From Escherichia phage VerenaGrendelmeier_Bas101, in sequence record PQ850631.1: a DNA stretch of 64,000 nt; one strand, 5' to 3'. The position numbers and the translations under genes are program-made. This document shows positions 6,404-50,323 of this stretch, one piece after another. Every line of letters begins with the position of its first letter. The stretch's first letter is position 1. The notes under the pieces are model-generated. The model searched no databases. It was not told the DNA's origin and saw nothing but the letters and a program-made list of their open reading frames with translations.

Positions 6404-6413
6404 AGAGGAAGTT

Positions 6414-6551
6414 ATGCAAAAGATTATTCAGTCACGTTATGTTAAAGTGCGAAATATTAATTGCAACTCTTTGCTTTCTTGGAAATGGGCTGTTTATGAC
6501 TCGATGTTGATTGGCGTTTTAGTGGCAGGAGTGCTATTTAATATTCACTGA
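6414..6551 (+). CDS. small putative membrane peptide (45 aa)
   Basis: AGAGGAAG RBS then ATG 6414; hydrophobic stretch MLIGVLVAGVLF; not in ORF track (under 60 aa). Confidence 0.3.
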   Translation: MQKIIQSRYVKVRNINCNSLLSWKWAVYDSMLIGVLVAGVLFNIH

Positions 6552-6584
6552 ATTCATCGGCAAAGGATTGCCGCGAGTTTTATA

Positions 6585-6850
6585 CGTATAATGACGTATC
6601 ATCCGTATCAAGTAAGTTGTTGTTTTCAAAAGAATCTTACGGATGATACGCGTTGCCGCCGTACCATATAGGAATTCAAATAAATTAATTTAAAATTATA
6701 TATCTAATTTAATTTTATTTTTTTATAAACTCTTATATATGAAAAGTATCCGTATCATCCGTATCATCCGTAGCACACCAGTGATAGCGCGACTTATACA
6801 CCGATACGGATAAAAATACGCCTCATTTTATCCGTATCATCCGTATCACA
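6585..6850. repeat. control region A: conserved 14-mer CGTATAATGACGTA, 9-bp ATCCGTATC iterons and AT-rich tract
   Basis: 14-mer at 6585-6598; iterons at 6597-6610, 6637-6666 (inverted), 6748-6773 (three tandem units), 6803-6812, 6828-6848; AT-rich 6670-6745. Confidence 0.6.
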
Positions 6851-6905
6851 CTAATAAAGGCGCGGCTATATCGGTTGTTATACATATTCAAACCATAATT
6901 ATTGT

Positions 6906-6934
6906 TTGCCTAAGTTTTTTTCATTAGATATAAT
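6906..6934 (+). promoter_or_regulatory. sigma70-like promoter (TTGCCT-17-TATAAT) for head/tail operon
   Basis: -35 TTGCCT 6906-6911, -10 TATAAT 6929-6934, 24 nt upstream of the start of 6958..8379. Confidence 0.5.
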
Positions 6935-6957
6935 ACACAATACTTATTTGAGGGTGG

Positions 6958-21270: not shown

Positions 21271-21299
21271 TTGCTTATAGACTCCTTATAGATTATAAT
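21271..21299 (+). promoter_or_regulatory. sigma70-like promoter (TTGCTT-17-TATAAT) inside tail module
   Basis: -35 TTGCTT 21271-21276, -10 TATAAT 21294-21299. Confidence 0.5.
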
Positions 21300-21324
21300 T
21301 TGTTGATCAGATATAAGGAGTCTA
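21278..21324 (+). promoter_or_regulatory. 13-bp perfect inverted repeat spanning promoter -10 and downstream RBS
   Basis: TAGACTCCTTATA 21278-21290 and TATAAGGAGTCTA 21312-21324; right arm contains the AAGGAG RBS of the next gene. Confidence 0.5.
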
Positions 21325-22052
21325 TGATGGCAGAGAAGTTAACTCAACTTACAAGCCCCAACCAAACTGACAAATCAAGTATGTTTGCCGCGCTGCAGGG
21401 AATGCTGGATCGTGGCAAGTATACCACTGACGGCATGATTCCTGCACAAGTAATATCTTATGACCGCAAACAGAATTTAGCAGTCATAAAGCCTGTTATT
21501 CATTTCGTAAGTCTTGATGATAAACCAGTGGAGCGTCAACCTCTGGTGTCAATTCCTGTATTGGCAATCGGCGGCGGCGGCTTTGTAATCAACTTTCCTT
21601 TGAAAGAAGGTGATTTGGGCTGGATATTCGCTGGCGACCGCGAGTTGTCGACATTCCTTGAAGAATTGAAGCCGACCGCGCCTACCAATGGTCGCGTGAA
21701 AACTTTCGCTGATGGACTGTTCATACCGGATGTATTCCGAAAATACACCATAAGCGGAGAGGATGCAGGCTCAATGGTAATTCAGTCACTCAGCGGCGCT
21801 GTACGAATTGCATTAAGTGATGACTCGATAAACATAACCGCATCAGCTGGGGTAAACGTGAAAACACCAATCACCACTATCGACCAACAACTGATAGTGA
21901 ATGGAAAGGCAACATTCAATGGTGGTATAGAAGGGAAAGAAGGAACGACGGCAACGCTTCCGACTGGCACCACAATCGGCGGCACAAATGTATCCACTCA
22001 CGGGCACATAGGTAACGGACCTGGAAACAGAACTGGGGACATGATAGAATGA
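21324..22052 (+). CDS. putative baseplate spike/hub protein (gpV-like)
   Basis: start moved to ATG 21324 behind AAGGAG; Gly-rich C-terminal region; by position. Confidence 0.4.
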   Translation: MMAEKLTQLTSPNQTDKSSMFAALQGMLDRGKYTTDGMIPAQVISYDRKQNLAVIKPVIHFVSLDDKPVERQPLVSIPVLAIGGGGFVINFPLKEGDLGWIFAGDRELSTFLEELKPTAPTNGRVKTFADGLFIPDVFRKYTISGEDAGSMVIQSLSGAVRIALSDDSINITASAGVNVKTPITTIDQQLIVNGKATFNGGIEGKEGTTATLPTGTTIGGTNVSTHGHIGNGPGNRTGDMIE

Positions 22053-33365: not shown

Positions 33366-33441
33366 TTTGTATTCCTCTGTTTCGTTTCTATGAATTAATT
33401 ATGACTCATCTTCCGTGACAAGTCAAATTATTTTTTTGATA

Positions 33442-40196: not shown

Positions 40197-40261
40197 TTAT
40201 TTATCCTTTTTGGACTTCATTTCGATGAGATAAATATAACTCATCGAAACGCACAAGTAAA

Positions 40262-41947: not shown

Positions 41948-42394
41948 TTAACGGTAATTCACTAGTTGCTGATCACCAGAGAAGGTGCAATGATAAACGA
42001 ATTGTGCGTTATAAAGCAACTGAAAACTTTTCTTTGGTTCATTATTAGAACTCATTGATGTAAAGATTTCTGCACCAGAACGGTTTTCACCAATCAGGTT
42101 AATAAAGCCGCCAGTTGAACGAGGCTGAACGAAAGTGAAACGCTGCATCCACGGAGTCCGGTTGGCACCTTTTCCGGTGAATCCCTGAATCTGAATATTC
42201 AGACCTTCTTGCTCGTTCACACCGATGTAAGTGGTAATTGTTGCGCCAGTCGTCGCTGCGGTCTTGCCGTCCATCGCTTCGCAATCGTAAACAGCGATTG
42301 AATCGGAAGTACGGACAGCGGCTTCAGTCGCTTCCATATACATGGTTCCGAGAATAGCAGTCGCGGCAAGCGCGATTCCAGTGATGCGTTTCAT
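41948..42394 (-). CDS. secreted protein
   Basis: 148 aa; signal-peptide-like N-terminus MKRITGIALAATAILG; AGAGGA RBS; own promoter. Confidence 0.45.
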   Translation of the reverse strand: MKRITGIALAATAILGTMYMEATEAAVRTSDSIAVYDCEAMDGKTAATTGATITTYIGVNEQEGLNIQIQGFTGKGANRTPWMQRFTFVQPRSTGGFINLIGENRSGAEIFTSMSSNNEPKKSFQLLYNAQFVYHCTFSGDQQLVNYR

Positions 42395-42414
42395 TTTCGT
42401 TTCCTCTATGAGTT

Positions 42415-42458
42415 CTGCTTCAATGATTAAAGTATACGCCCATTGAAGCAGAAAGCAA
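42415..42458 (-). promoter_or_regulatory. promoter (TTGCTT-16-TATACT) with flanking 11-bp inverted repeat (operator-like)
   Basis: minus-strand -35 at plus 42453-42458, -10 at plus 42431-42436; arms CTGCTTCAATG 42415-42425 and CATTGAAGCAG 42441-42451 bracket the -10. Confidence 0.5.
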
Positions 42459-42459
42459 A

Positions 42460-43455
42460 TTATTTATTAGCAATATAAGCAAATTTTTGATAGTTATTTG
42501 CTTTGATGAGTTTTTCAACTTCAGCAAGGTCATGAGCGACGTCATCAAGCAAAATGTTTCGCCAAGTAGCGAATCGACCGACACTGAATACGTTCAAATC
42601 CATAGTCAACTGGAGCAGTAAGGCGTGGCGCAAGTCTTTCGGAATGTCGACAATTTTGCCATACTTCTGGTCAACCTTTTCAACTTCTTCCAAAGAGATG
42701 TCATTCCATGAAAGACCAAAAGCGGTAAGAACTTCATCCACTTCTGCACGCAGCTTCATGTCGCGATAACGTGTAATGCCGCCAGCGGCTTCAACTGCTG
42801 CCGCGCTGACGCTTACCAATGGAATTGTTTCAATGATCAGCGTGTCACCAGTGATTGATGCGCGGTAAGTCCTTACAGAATAGTCAGGGAAGTAAATTGT
42901 TTGATACAACTCACACTTGCGCTTAATCTTAAAACGATAAACGCGAATATTTGCCTTATCAAACGAGAAGTCGAGCTTTTGATCAATACCAGCAAGCTTC
43001 ATCATGACTGGCAGCGGCGATGTGTTGATGATTGGCGTCTCGCTATAGCCGCAAAGCGTGTCGACCGGAGTATTAAAGAATATACGGTCACCCAGTTTAT
43101 CGACAAGTTGATCATAAAAGTCATCCGGCGCTATGTAGCGCGTAGCAGTTTGAAGCTTCATGATTGAGCGGCTGCCAAACTGGTTGGTGACTTTCATAGA
43201 GTACATATTGGCAAGGTTGATTGGGCAATGGTCGTGATAGTAGTTACCGCGAAAATACACGGCCTTGTCAACTGTCACTGCCTTAAAAGGGATTCCGGTA
43301 ATACGGCTTACTTCTTCGCCGCGAAAGCGTAGCAGCGCCTTGTGCTGTGGCGCTCGCTCCCCTGCTTCGTACACAATAGAGTTCGGGAAGTGACACGCGG
43401 TAATAAGTCCTGCCAAACCGCCGCCGATAATCATTACAGGTTGTTTCATGTTCAT
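42460..43455 (-). CDS. FAD-dependent oxidoreductase
   Basis: 331 aa; N-terminal dinucleotide-binding VMIIGGGLAGL. Confidence 0.55.
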   Translation of the reverse strand: MNMKQPVMIIGGGLAGLITACHFPNSIVYEAGERAPQHKALLRFRGEEVSRITGIPFKAVTVDKAVYFRGNYYHDHCPINLANMYSMKVTNQFGSRSIMKLQTATRYIAPDDFYDQLVDKLGDRIFFNTPVDTLCGYSETPIINTSPLPVMMKLAGIDQKLDFSFDKANIRVYRFKIKRKCELYQTIYFPDYSVRTYRASITGDTLIIETIPLVSVSAAAVEAAGGITRYRDMKLRAEVDEVLTAFGLSWNDISLEEVEKVDQKYGKIVDIPKDLRHALLLQLTMDLNVFSVGRFATWRNILLDDVAHDLAEVEKLIKANNYQKFAYIANK

Positions 43456-43590: not shown

Positions 43591-44430
43591 TTATTCCGCT
43601 TGATCACCGTCTTCAGCATCGTCGTTGGATTCAACATCGACAAACTCGATGTGGCCCATCTCTTCCAGCTTGCTCAGGTAGGAGCGAACGGAAGCGCCAA
43701 ACAGTTGATCTTTAACTTTCTCGCCCAGCTCATCGATAGACTGTGCCACGCCAACTTCGCCTTCTTTGATCGCAGCCAGAACGCGTCCACGGGTGGAATG
43801 CTCTTGCGGCTGGCTCAGGCCATTACCAGTGTAGATGAAGTGAGTAGCTTTTGCACGACGCTGACCGTTTGCCTTTTTAGCAGCCTTACGTTCTGCGATG
43901 GCTTTGCGACGTTCTTCAGCTTCTTTCTTACGCTGTTCTTTCTGCTGTTCTGCAGCTTCTTTCGCCGCAATCTTAGCAGCTTCACGCTCTGCCTTGCGTT
44001 TCGCTTTAGCTTCTTCTTTGGCCTTCTCTTTTTCGGCCTTCGCTGCAGCACGGGCTTGATCACGCTCTGCTTTCTTAGCAGCAGCTTGTTCAGCTTTCAG
44101 GCGCTTGGCTTCTTCTTTAGCCTTTGCCTTTTCGATTTCTTTCGCTGCTTTAGCGGCTTCACGCTCTGCTTTCTTAGCAGCGGCCTTTTCTGCACGCTCT
44201 TTAGCTTTCTTGGCTGCTTCTTCAGCACGCTTCTGAGCCTTCTCATCAGCAGCCTGCTTGCGTTTCAGCGCAGCTTCTTCACGCTTGGCTTGTTTTTCCT
44301 GCTCACGCTTCTGGCGTTTTTCTTCGGCTTCTTTCTTTTTAGCCAGGCGTTTTTCTTCAGCCACGCGACGACGTTCTGCTGCAGCTGCTTGTTTTTCTTC
44401 TTTAGATAATACTTTGATTGCTTCGGCCAT
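43591..44430 (-). CDS. Lys/Ala/Glu-rich low-complexity protein with globular C-terminal domain
   Basis: about 200 aa of KAEE/AKKA-type charged repeats, then non-repetitive acidic C-terminus; ATG 44430 behind AAGGA. Confidence 0.5.
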   Translation of the reverse strand: MAEAIKVLSKEEKQAAAAERRRVAEEKRLAKKKEAEEKRQKREQEKQAKREEAALKRKQAADEKAQKRAEEAAKKAKERAEKAAAKKAEREAAKAAKEIEKAKAKEEAKRLKAEQAAAKKAERDQARAAAKAEKEKAKEEAKAKRKAEREAAKIAAKEAAEQQKEQRKKEAEERRKAIAERKAAKKANGQRRAKATHFIYTGNGLSQPQEHSTRGRVLAAIKEGEVGVAQSIDELGEKVKDQLFGASVRSYLSKLEEMGHIEFVDVESNDDAEDGDQAE

Positions 44431-44589
44431 GTTCACAGTCCTTAAATAAATTAGTTTATTTTATATTCCCCGTTTGGGATAACTTAATTATGCCTTCAGT
44501 CGCCGCCAGTAGCAACTAAAAACTATGGCGGCGATGCCACTTTAATTAAACTGATTTTCAGTTTTATTTTTCGTAAATTTACGTCAACA

Positions 44590-47344: not shown

Positions 47345-47372
47345 TTGCTTTTATTTTCATAGCAACTATAAT
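47345..47372 (+). promoter_or_regulatory. sigma70-like promoter (TTGCTT-16-TATAAT)
   Basis: -35 47345-47350, -10 47367-47372. Confidence 0.45.
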
Positions 47373-47401
47373 CATTTTATGAACTGAAGCAGAGGTGATT
47401 C

Positions 47402-48516: not shown

Positions 48517-48565
48517 TAGTTCACCAGTTATATTGCTTTAAATTGAGTTTTACTATATTAATATA

Positions 48566-48592
48566 CAACGCCAGATTTCTGGCGTTTATTTA
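48566..48592 (+). terminator. rho-independent terminator-like hairpin
   Basis: CGCCAGA / TCTGGCG stem followed by TTTATTT. Confidence 0.4.
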
Positions 48593-48652
48593 CCGCACCC
48601 TGAAAGGATATATCCATGCAACAATATAACAAAGCCGTATCAGGAGGATTAA

Positions 48653-50323
48653 ATGTCAATTAATAATGACAATCTTCCAGAGGATACAGGTGATGAATTT
48701 GGTGCAATCTTTGACGAAATTCAAGATGCAGGCGTTTCGGAAGAAATGCAGGCAGCAGAGCAGCAAGGCACCAGAGCTAAAATCAGCCTTCAACACAAAG
48801 CCGTTGAAAAAGATTCAGAGCGCATGGAGTGTTACGGTGAAGAAGACTTGGTTGAAAGAGCACGCTTGCTCGCCTCACTTCAGGTAATCAAGTTCCCTCA
48901 CTACAAGCCGACCAAAGATGACTTCGTTCTACAGGCAGACCGGACGAGTGACATGAACCGCTATGCGGTGTTCGACGCGTTGTTTGATAAGGGAAGTGGC
49001 ATTGTTCCATTCCCTCACAAAGATACTTTTCGTGGGCGCTTAGTCGACCATCGCGGCGAAACATTCACTGACCGTACCTTGGAAGTCACAGAGATAGTTG
49101 CCGCTGTCGACGCAGCAGGGCTGTCTAACCCAAACTCACGTCAGGTTGCTCAATCCTATAAGGAATGGGCCATGCGTTATCAGCGCGACGACCTGATGGA
49201 CTTCTTCTACAAGAAGCTGCCTGAATGGGACGGTACTGCGCGCATCGAGAAATACCTTATCGAGCTATTCCGACCGTTCGATACAGAGTTAAACCGACAA
49301 ATCGGTGTGTATTTTTGGCTATCGCTCTACAACCGCCTGACCAACCCTGGCTGTCAAGCGCCAATCTCCATCGCGCTCATCGGCGGCCAGAACGCAGGGA
49401 AGAGTTATTTTAGCAAGCTGCTTTGCGAAGCTATTATGAACGACCGCCACGCAACACCGATTCCGTTGAACTTAGCCGCGCAAAACTTCAACCCGTTCTT
49501 GCGAGCTATTACGGGTCGCTCGATTATCGCGAACGTCGGCGAGATGACAGGCTTTAAAAAGGCCGACATCGAAAACATGAAAGCATTCCTGACTAAGACG
49601 GAAGATGACCTGGACTTCAAATTTGAAGATACGCAGGTTAAACCACGCCAGTGGATTGCTATCATGGACGGCAACGAATACGCAGGCATGCAGCGTGATG
49701 ACACGGGCAACCGTCGTGTGTATCCTATCTTTGTTGGCCAACTCGCCGACAAGGACGGGCAACCGAACTGGTCGAAAGATTTCCAAGCTGACCTTTCCAC
49801 TTTGAAAGAAGACGTTTGGCAGCTTATGGCTGAGTGCGCTGCGTGGATGGAGAAGCACGGCGAAGCAGGCTATAACGCGTTTGTTGGTGAAACATCTCGC
49901 ATGCTTACTGAGTTCAGTAAAAACGAGATGGAACGCGCTCGCGGCGTTATCCGTGATGAGATGGTTGACAACGACCTTGTTGAAGTCGTCATCACCGCGC
50001 CTTATGATCGACATCACAGCGGACGCTGGCACATCACCAGTGGTGCTATTGCTATGGGATTCAGAGCGAAGTGCGGCAAGTCGCCTTTCTCTCGTACCCT
50101 TGCGCCGCACATGTCGAAGCTTGGTTTTGAGCCTGCAACCTATCGCAACCAGCGCGGTTACTTTACGCCGCTGATTAAGAATGAAGCAGGGGAATACATT
50201 TCTGATTTGATGACCATCTTAGCGTATCTTATCCGCGATGAGTCTGACCCTGAAGATATTGAATTCTTGAAGAAGGTTATCGAGCGTAAACGTTCTTTGG
50301 GAAGAGATAAGGATGAATTCTGA
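48653..50323 (+). CDS. primase-associated P-loop ATPase/helicase (VirE / D5-like)
   Basis: 556 aa; Walker A IGGQNAGKSY; overall resemblance to phage/plasmid primase C-terminal ATPase. Confidence 0.5.
   Translation: MSINNDNLPEDTGDEFGAIFDEIQDAGVSEEMQAAEQQGTRAKISLQHKAVEKDSERMECYGEEDLVERARLLASLQVIKFPHYKPTKDDFVLQADRTSDMNRYAVFDALFDKGSGIVPFPHKDTFRGRLVDHRGETFTDRTLEVTEIVAAVDAAGLSNPNSRQVAQSYKEWAMRYQRDDLMDFFYKKLPEWDGTARIEKYLIELFRPFDTELNRQIGVYFWLSLYNRLTNPGCQAPISIALIGGQNAGKSYFSKLLCEAIMNDRHATPIPLNLAAQNFNPFLRAITGRSIIANVGEMTGFKKADIENMKAFLTKTEDDLDFKFEDTQVKPRQWIAIMDGNEYAGMQRDDTGNRRVYPIFVGQLADKDGQPNWSKDFQADLSTLKEDVWQLMAECAAWMEKHGEAGYNAFVGETSRMLTEFSKNEMERARGVIRDEMVDNDLVEVVITAPYDRHHSGRWHITSGAIAMGFRAKCGKSPFSRTLAPHMSKLGFEPATYRNQRGYFTPLIKNEAGEYISDLMTILAYLIRDESDPEDIEFLKKVIERKRSLGRDKDEF

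Follow-up and report, generated by a model that had tools for sequence, protein, structure and literature searches.

A predicted read-through-specific RNA hairpin laid over an internal sigma70-type promoter in a Wifcevirus genome

In the genome of Escherichia phage VerenaGrendelmeier_Bas101 (PQ850631.1), a perfect inverted repeat brackets the -10 hexamer of a putative promoter in the 65-nucleotide (nt) spacer between a UDP-galactopyranose mutase (UGM)-like gene and a gene for a putative secreted protein of 148 amino acids (aa). We call this spacer site A. Our analysis of the window, the whole 64,000-nt stretch of this genome, leads us to the view that the palindrome is probably not a repressor operator and that it more likely encodes an RNA hairpin specific for read-through transcripts, laid over an internal promoter in a layout that recurs in the phage lineage. 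This view draws on the anatomy of the spacer, on the statistical excess of its two components in the window, on sister sites with the same geometry, and on diverged relatives in which base pairing is kept while the paired sequence changes.

A predicted promoter and an inverted repeat in one spacer

On the minus strand, site A reads TAA-TTTGCTT-TCTGCTTCAATG-GGCG-TATACT-TTAAT-CATTGAAGCAGAA-CTCATAGAGGAAACGAAA-ATG, with the start codon ATG at 42394. Its elements, in the direction of transcription, are the following.

42453-42458, minus strand: -35 hexamer TTGCTT, sigma70-type; invariant in 17 Wifcevirus genomes and kept in the diverged relatives L017, L024, L032, L033 and L025
42441-42453, minus strand: 5' hairpin arm TTCTGCTTCAATG, in the -35/-10 spacer; predicted to be absent from promoter-initiated RNA
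42431-42436, minus strand: -10 hexamer TATACT, in the hairpin loop and 16 nt from the -35; invariant in relatives
42413-42425, minus strand: 3' hairpin arm CATTGAAGCAGAA, at about -1 to +12 of the predicted transcript of the promoter; includes the conserved TGAAGCAGA
42403-42406, minus strand: ribosome-binding site (RBS) GAGG, 6 nt downstream of the hairpin; masking is not predicted

The two hexamers agree with the sigma70 consensus at three of six (TTGCTT against TTGACA) and five of six positions (TATACT) and stand 16 base pairs (bp) apart, as in a sigma70-type promoter. A generic scan for sigma70 promoters and terminators lists neither this promoter nor the hairpin; the promoter was missed because its -35 hexamer shares only three positions with TTGACA. 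Generic sigma70-like matches in the region are near chance level (26 vs 19.8 in shuffled sequences), which, together with the weak -35 match, is what could be said for a chance palindrome beside a chance promoter-like match. The more specific motif class TTGCTT-N15-18-TAnAnT, however, occurs nine times in the window against 1.0 expected, a ninefold enrichment that none of 100 shuffles reached. Seven of these nine matches are intergenic and aimed at the next gene (2113-, 2180+, 21271+, 42431-, 46139-, 47345+ and 48533+, the sign giving the strand), and near variants (TTGCTG, TTGCTA, TTTACT or TTGACT, with a 16-17-nt spacer) lie upstream of other genes in the same array. In the distant relative 14-1, 26 sigma70-like promoters have been found experimentally, with transcription units of one or two genes (PMC10914365). 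A sigma70-type promoter at site A is well supported computationally, and the motif enrichment together with its conservation in relatives backs the claim of an earlier sequence-only reading of this DNA that the 148-aa gene has its own TTGCTT-16-TATACT promoter. The coordinates given in that reading were all correct, both for the promoter hexamers and for CTGCTTCAATG and CATTGAAGCAG on either side of the -10. The perfect palindrome that it described around the -10 is present where it was placed, but measures 13 nt rather than 11.

This perfect inverted repeat (42413-42425 and 42441-42453) encloses a 15-nt loop that contains the -10 hexamer. Three perfect repeats in the window have a stem of 13 nt or more and a loop of 3-25 nt, and no such repeat arose in 30 block shuffles; stems of 10 nt or more occur eight times, compared with 1.2 in shuffles. 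Folded as RNA, the element has a predicted free energy of -19.1 kcal/mol (z = -4.1), with five G-C pairs among the 13. It was rejected as a canonical intrinsic terminator: the stem has no U-tract, and the terminator scan lists 43562 and 38848, not site A. No Rfam family was matched anywhere in the window.

Neither the arms nor the hexamers vary among the 17 Wifcevirus genomes. Only five of the 65 positions of the spacer vary, two in the loop and three beside the ATG, compared with 15-24% of positions in the flanking genes. That the spacer is more conserved than its coding flanks, that a 13-nt perfect repeat is absent from all 30 shuffles, that the motif class is enriched, and that the layout recurs at paralogous and orthologous sites, as described below, together leave chance as an effectively refuted explanation.

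We propose that the spacer holds two superimposed signals, a host-type, sigma70-like promoter (TTGCTT-16-TATACT) and an intercistronic RNA hairpin, whose arms would occupy the sequence-free parts of the promoter, one in the -35/-10 spacer and the other over the first bases of the transcript, leaving the -10 in the loop. Transcripts arriving from the upstream gene would carry a stable hairpin of 13-14 bp (about -19 kcal/mol) just 5' of the RBS. The promoter itself is predicted to start transcription at about 42424, placed 7 nt downstream of the -10, which is the second base of the 3' arm. With the 5' arm inside the -35/-10 spacer and transcription predicted to start where the 3' arm begins, only RNA from upstream can form the site-A hairpin; transcripts begun at about 42424 would lack the 5' arm, and the 148-aa gene would have two kinds of mRNA. 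A promoter placed such that its own predicted transcript omits the 5' arm is likewise found at the two sister sites introduced below. We infer promoter activity, this start site, the existence of read-through RNA and a biochemical effect of the hairpin, which may consist in 3'-end protection, in processing, or in a barrier by attenuation or partial termination. Such a barrier would uncouple the secreted-protein gene from upstream transcription, leaving its expression mainly to its own promoter.

What could supply the read-through RNA? The gene immediately upstream is co-oriented:

42460-43455, minus strand: gene for a protein of 331 aa, phrog_4828, annotated as UDP-galactopyranose mutase-like in phage Mansfield

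Since the terminator scan finds no intrinsic terminator between this gene and the hairpin (42395-42459), the UGM-like gene is the likely source of read-through transcripts. Transcription across site A is suggested by the co-oriented upstream gene, by the terminator-free interval, and by a promoter-like TTGCTG-17-TATACT that stands upstream and follows the terminator at 43562-43542. Near its 3' end, the UGM-like gene also contains the complement AAAGCAAAT (42496-42504) of ATTTGCTT, which itself occurs twice on the minus strand (42479-42486 and 42452-42459); these segments may allow alternative pairings involving the -35 region in read-through RNA.

Sister sites and diverged relatives

Two further sites in the window share the geometry of site A, with unrelated arm sequences.

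21271-21329, plus strand: site B, upstream of the baseplate-spike gene; TTGCTT-17-TATAAT, with perfect 14-nt arms (21277-21290 and 21312-21325) around the -10
40220-40261, minus strand: site C, between the PNKP-like gene and the short-chain dehydrogenase (SDR) gene; TTTACT-17-TATATT, with perfect 10-nt arms (40240-40249 and 40220-40229) and the -10 in the loop

At site B, which is invariant in relatives, the arms are ATAGACTCCTTATA and TATAAGGAGTCTAT, and the 3' arm includes both the AAGGAG ribosome-binding site and the start codon ATG of the gene for the baseplate spike. In read-through RNA, the RBS and start codon have a predicted probability of 0.01-0.02 of being unpaired, against 0.62-0.67 in RNA initiated at the promoter. 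As the 3' arm contains the RBS and the start codon, the read-through RNA is predicted to be silent; it should not be translated, and the promoter-initiated RNA alone should serve as message. This masking layout is kept with wholly different arms in Pantoea phage Kyle (TTTACT-17-TATAAT, ACCTCTTACAGTA and TACTGTAAGAGGT). In Serratia phage MTx, the equivalent site has a 17-bp helix in which the -10 region pairs with the RBS and start codon. The pattern is also recognisable in PB1, where the 5' arm bears CTGGG, the core of a phage-specific promoter motif that has been mapped in 14-1. The arms of site C are TTTCGATGAG and CTCATCGAAA.

Looser hairpins overlap promoter-like sites at 44487-44534 and 33398-33426. 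The first belongs to a minus-strand element (44487-44545, TTGCTA-17-CATAAT) whose 9-bp GC stem has the -35 in its loop, and the second to another (33398-33430, minus strand, TTGACT-17-CATAAT) in which the hairpin arms cover both the -35 and the -10. On the plus strand, at 48533-48625, a TTGCTT-15-TATATT promoter is followed within about 10 nt by a terminator-like hairpin, ACGCCAGA-TTTC-TCTGGCGT, and TTTATTT; this combination could produce a very short transcript or act as a leader attenuator upstream of the gene at 48653.

Within the operon, spacers that have canonical terminators (43562, 38848, 31600 and 29415) carry promoters without an overlapping hairpin, whereas overlapping hairpins are found in spacers that lack a canonical terminator. 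This distribution suggests that the overlapping hairpins somehow delimit the RNA that comes from upstream. It also fits another account, in which site A is an ordinary intercistronic hairpin serving the upstream gene, as a 3'-end protector or a weak terminator, that overlaps the promoter for lack of room in 65 nt, with no interplay between mRNA forms. The exact placement of the arms in the sequence-free zones of the promoter is likewise what compaction would produce, and RBS masking is predicted at neither site A nor site C. However, none of the stems at sites A, B and C is followed by a U-tract, and the hairpin of site B and of its orthologues is clearly aimed at the translation start of the downstream gene. 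In addition, in the relatives L032 and L033 the site-A helix reaches the RBS through G.U-containing pairs, and the predicted probability that the RBS is unpaired falls from 0.54 to 0.30 and from 0.42 to 0.29, respectively. We regard compaction alone as unlikely; it overlaps heavily with the reading that we favour, and the one point that separates them is whether any use is made of the difference between the mRNA forms.

The relatives were reached through one remote homologue of the 148-aa protein (P0002, from an exhaustive HMMER search) and through UGM-like homologues that are 53-70% identical. Upstream of the orthologous gene, the hexamers and their 16-17-nt spacing are kept while the adjoining bases have changed: the promoter is TTGCTT-16-TATACT in L017, L024, L032 and L033, TTGCTT-17-GATAAT in L025 (Kyle), and TTGCCA-17-TATAGT in L022. 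The repeats read AAGGGTTAT and ATAACCCTT in L017, and (A)GTTGGGTTAT and ATAACCCAAC(T) in L024, L032 and L033, and the AA/TT to TT/AA change between these two versions is compensatory. Over the 14 pairs of the site-A orthologues, 96% of cells are paired, compared with 27-45% in slid controls, and three pairs have changed on both sides; 17 of 500 shuffles did as well. These counts come from a gap-free re-alignment, as the MAFFT alignment had misplaced the 3' arm of L017. At the site-C orthologues of the same four relatives all 44 of 44 cells are paired (slid controls 27-59%), with four of 11 pairs varying without being broken (A-U to G.U to G-C; C-G to G-C), two pairs changed on both sides, and four G.U cells that always lie on the sense strand.

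The hairpin of the window stands in a different register from that of the relatives: its 3' arm is the conserved TGAAGCAGA, which in the relatives is loop. Orthologous repeats are kept while sequence and register change, which argues for selection on nucleic-acid pairing and not on a protein recognition sequence. Pairing kept through sequence turnover, with G.U intermediates, points to a helix in the sense-strand RNA rather than to a protein recognition site or a DNA cruciform. As a separate observation, TGAAGCAGA (42414-42422, minus strand; about +2 to +10 of the predicted transcript) is conserved in L017, L024, L032 and L033 even as loop. Its sole other exact copy in the window lies at 47385-47393 on the plus strand, in the 5' leader behind the TTGCTT-class promoter at 47345; with just one more exact copy, we rejected it as a genome-wide motif.

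The sequence-only reading had taken the palindrome for a textbook operator geometry implying repressor control. A dimeric repressor of phage or host would then bind both arms on duplex DNA, occlude the -10, and switch the secreted-protein gene. The perfect dyad symmetry centred on the -10 fits this idea, as do the invariance of the arms in the 17 genomes while two loop positions vary, and a 5-4-5 palindrome of operator-like dimensions, GCTCAAGGATGAGC, in the promoter spacer of the Kyle-like clade. Classical operators, however, have short half-sites about one helical turn apart, whereas site A has arms of 13 bp whose centres are separated by 28 bp (about 2.7 helical turns). A search for other copies of the palindrome, which that reading had proposed as a check, found none beyond chance within the window, even with one mismatch allowed. 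Sites B and C repeat the geometry with unrelated sequences, so a separate regulator would be needed for each promoter. An operator sequence would be expected to stay the same at orthologous promoters or to recur at promoters under common control, and neither is seen here; the relatives swap the arm sequence and shift its register with pairing kept, and their G.U pairs amount to A.C mismatches in the DNA symmetry. No candidate cognate regulator was identified, although no search was aimed at regulators. Taken together, we judge an operator improbable, and the inference of repressor control is not supported.

Could the structure form in the DNA itself? A cruciform or hairpin extruded on supercoiled DNA might expose or hide the -10 and tie promoter strength to supercoiling or replication. 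The position of the -10 in the loop at three sites would suit this model, as would the conservation of pairing rather than of sequence, and hairpin-form promoters are known for the virion RNA polymerase of phage N4. Cruciform extrusion is, however, energetically and kinetically unfavourable with loops of 10-21 nt. RNA tolerates the G.U pairs of the orthologous stems, which are mismatches in DNA and are confined to the sense strand; the exact coincidence of the site-B 3' arm with the RBS and start codon makes sense at the RNA level only. We consider a role for DNA structure very improbable.

Several points nonetheless weigh against a read-through-specific RNA hairpin at site A. The promoter, its start site and read-through transcription in Wifcevirus are all predictions. 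The one mechanism with a precedent, masking of the RBS, does not fit site A, where the 3' arm stops 6 nt before GAGG and the predicted accessibility of the RBS is alike in both mRNA forms (probability of being unpaired 0.73 in read-through and 0.70 in promoter-initiated RNA); masking was rejected there as unsupported, and site C gives a similar result (0.74 and 0.69). A stem of 13 bp is short for RNase III, and the site-A stem is followed by CUCAUAGAGG and not by a U-tract. The covariation comes from four distinct sequences per site, with shuffle controls of 17/500 and 63/500, and a co-evolving dimeric DNA-binding protein would also preserve palindromic symmetry. Finally, L022, L023, L025 and L030 have no repeat across the -10 at this gene, and at most a 5-bp hairpin within the spacer.

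A bolder version of the RNA-hairpin reading is that Wifcevirus-like phages possess a genome-wide grammar of internal host-type promoters overlaid with hairpins, in which each such gene is read from two mRNA forms and the non-masking sites are handled by an undescribed route. We put this forward tentatively and think it rather doubtful. Candidate routes at the non-masking sites would be cleavage by a nuclease of the phage or of the host, or hairpin-dependent termination free of a U-tract, perhaps aided by an RNA polymerase waiting at the promoter that the hairpin overlaps. If true, such a grammar would insulate transcription units in a phage reported to finish infection in minutes.

The predicted secreted protein and its surroundings

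The gene downstream of site A is the following.

41948-42394, minus strand: coding sequence, 148 aa; predicted Sec signal peptide at residues 1-25 (42394-42320); C38 and C136 of the mature part are conserved

The N-terminus begins with MKR (K2, R3), continues with ITGIALAATAIL, a 12-residue hydrophobic core with a mean Kyte-Doolittle value of 2.2, and reaches a putative cleavage site T-E-A|A at residues 23-26. A rule-based check, which asks for a basic n-region, an h-region of 10-15 hydrophobic residues, and small residues at -3/-1, agrees with the signal peptide noted from the sequence alone, and the features are kept in eight diverged homologues. The protein is found in all 28 Wifcevirus records. 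Neither Pfam nor PHROGs assigns it a family; a word-indexed homologue search returned the Wifcevirus cluster only, a profile search added no new members, scans of IMG/VR gave near-identical phages only, and the exhaustive HMMER search gave the single remote homologue P0002. The homologues are 126-138 aa long, share 16-36% identity, and are encoded in the equivalent slot, with the UGM-like gene on one side and ThyX on the other, in every relative examined. Each combines a basic N-terminus and a hydrophobic core with an A-x-A-like site, and each has two conserved cysteines and the motif V-x-Y-K/R at the C-terminus. We rejected a recent acquisition of the gene (a moron), as its GC content (0.463) matches that of the genome (0.461) and the gene keeps its position in different genera.

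An AlphaFold model built from five sequences (predicted local distance difference test score, pLDDT, 71.6) is an eight-stranded all-beta barrel, and structure searches returned generic small barrels only (periplasmic lysozyme inhibitors, lipocalins and LolA), with low scores. The protein is predicted to be a lineage-restricted beta-barrel, for which a periplasmic binding or inhibitor role is plausible. It would represent a small family of secreted beta-barrels fixed between the UGM-like and ThyX genes and provided with its own promoter; superinfection exclusion and inhibition of cell-wall enzymes are candidate functions in the periplasm. The slot itself is variable: Kyle (L025; 4035-4409 and 4477-4890) may hold a second signal-peptide protein just upstream of the homologue, and L023, L030, L017 and L024 have extra small open reading frames of 46-79 aa.

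The window belongs to the E. coli myophage genus Wifcevirus, and the region is 92-96% identical to 28 Wifcevirus genomes infecting E. coli or Shigella, including WFH, WFC, FEC19, ECML-117, Mansfield and Bas98-100. One record places the genus in Lindbergviridae, and Pbunavirus is a distant relative (PMC11990801). Site A lies in a co-oriented minus-strand array that encodes a RecD-like helicase, a Lys/Glu/Ala-rich 'TolA-like' protein, the UGM-like protein and the 148-aa protein, and that continues with ThyX, a HAD/PNKP-like phosphatase, the SDR and a glyoxalase-like protein. The 'TolA-like' protein (281 aa; 43591-44436, minus strand), called 'TolA protein' in some records, is mostly a Lys/Glu/Ala-rich low-complexity coiled coil; its gene keeps its position across relatives and is followed by the canonical terminator at 43562-43542. 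Elsewhere in the window, a 555-nt spacer (6404-6957) contains about eight copies of ATCCGTATC, direct and inverted, flanking a stretch of about 75 nt of nearly pure A/T (6660-6735). The cluster looks like iterons with an unwinding element, and hence a candidate origin, or like an array of regulator-binding sites.

Comparison with known systems

How does site A compare with the regulatory elements that it resembles? As in lambda OR/OL, lacO and LexA boxes, dyad symmetry overlaps core promoter elements. In contrast to these operators, the arms at site A are separated by a 15-bp non-symmetric spacer, have no other copy within the window, and are replaced in relatives with pairing kept and G.U pairs tolerated. 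For annotation, the lesson would be that long perfect palindromes across a -10 in compact phage genomes should not be taken for operators by default.

Like intrinsic terminators and intercistronic stabiliser hairpins, site A has a stable stem-loop that begins a few nt past a stop codon within a run of co-oriented genes, and this stem-loop may set or shield the 3' end of the preceding mRNA. It differs from intrinsic terminators in its missing U-tract, its G-C content of five pairs in 13, and its large 15-nt loop containing a -10; the canonical terminators of the operon look quite different. The -35 region of the phage promoters, which reads wwTTGCTTtw, shares the TGCTT core of the T4 MotA box, (a/t)(a/t)(a/t)TGCTTtA. 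The MotA box of T4 lies 11-13 bp from the -10, whereas at the seven intergenic sites the motif stands 14-15 bp from it, the ordinary position of a -35, unlike in a MotA middle promoter.

The closest precedent is the promoter inside an inhibitory RNA hairpin described for the T4 genes e (lysozyme), soc, 49 and I-TevI and for Aeh1 mobE (PMC3014915). In the gene e-type system, the 5' arm contains or adjoins an internal promoter, such that long read-through transcripts fold the hairpin while those begun at this promoter start too late to include the 5' arm; the same arrangement is predicted here. The T4 late promoters (TATAAATA) have no -35, whereas the promoters here are of the sigma70 type with a -35, and the 5' arm must consequently fit into the -35/-10 spacer. 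The phage family is also unrelated to T4, as Wifcevirus is a relative of Pbunavirus.

If our reading is correct, the promoter-in-hairpin device would not be peculiar to T4 late promoters; it would be a recurrent and evolving design in Wifcevirus, Kylevirus, Myosmarvirus and Pbunavirus, and would rely on host-type promoters. Some Pbunavirus relatives are in therapeutic use. The device would let read-through and locally initiated messages behave differently.

The individual sites stand at different distances from the T4 gene e-type system. The feature that defines the system, sequestration of the RBS and start codon in the long transcript only, is absent at site A and partly present in its L032 and L033 orthologues. 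On this comparison, site A should be described as working like the gene e-type system in giving two structurally different mRNA forms, without belonging to it. A full match to the system, with the RBS and start codon in the 3' arm, is seen at site B and at its orthologues in Kyle, MTx and PB1, and site B is a new member of this kind, in an unrelated phage family that uses sigma70 promoters.

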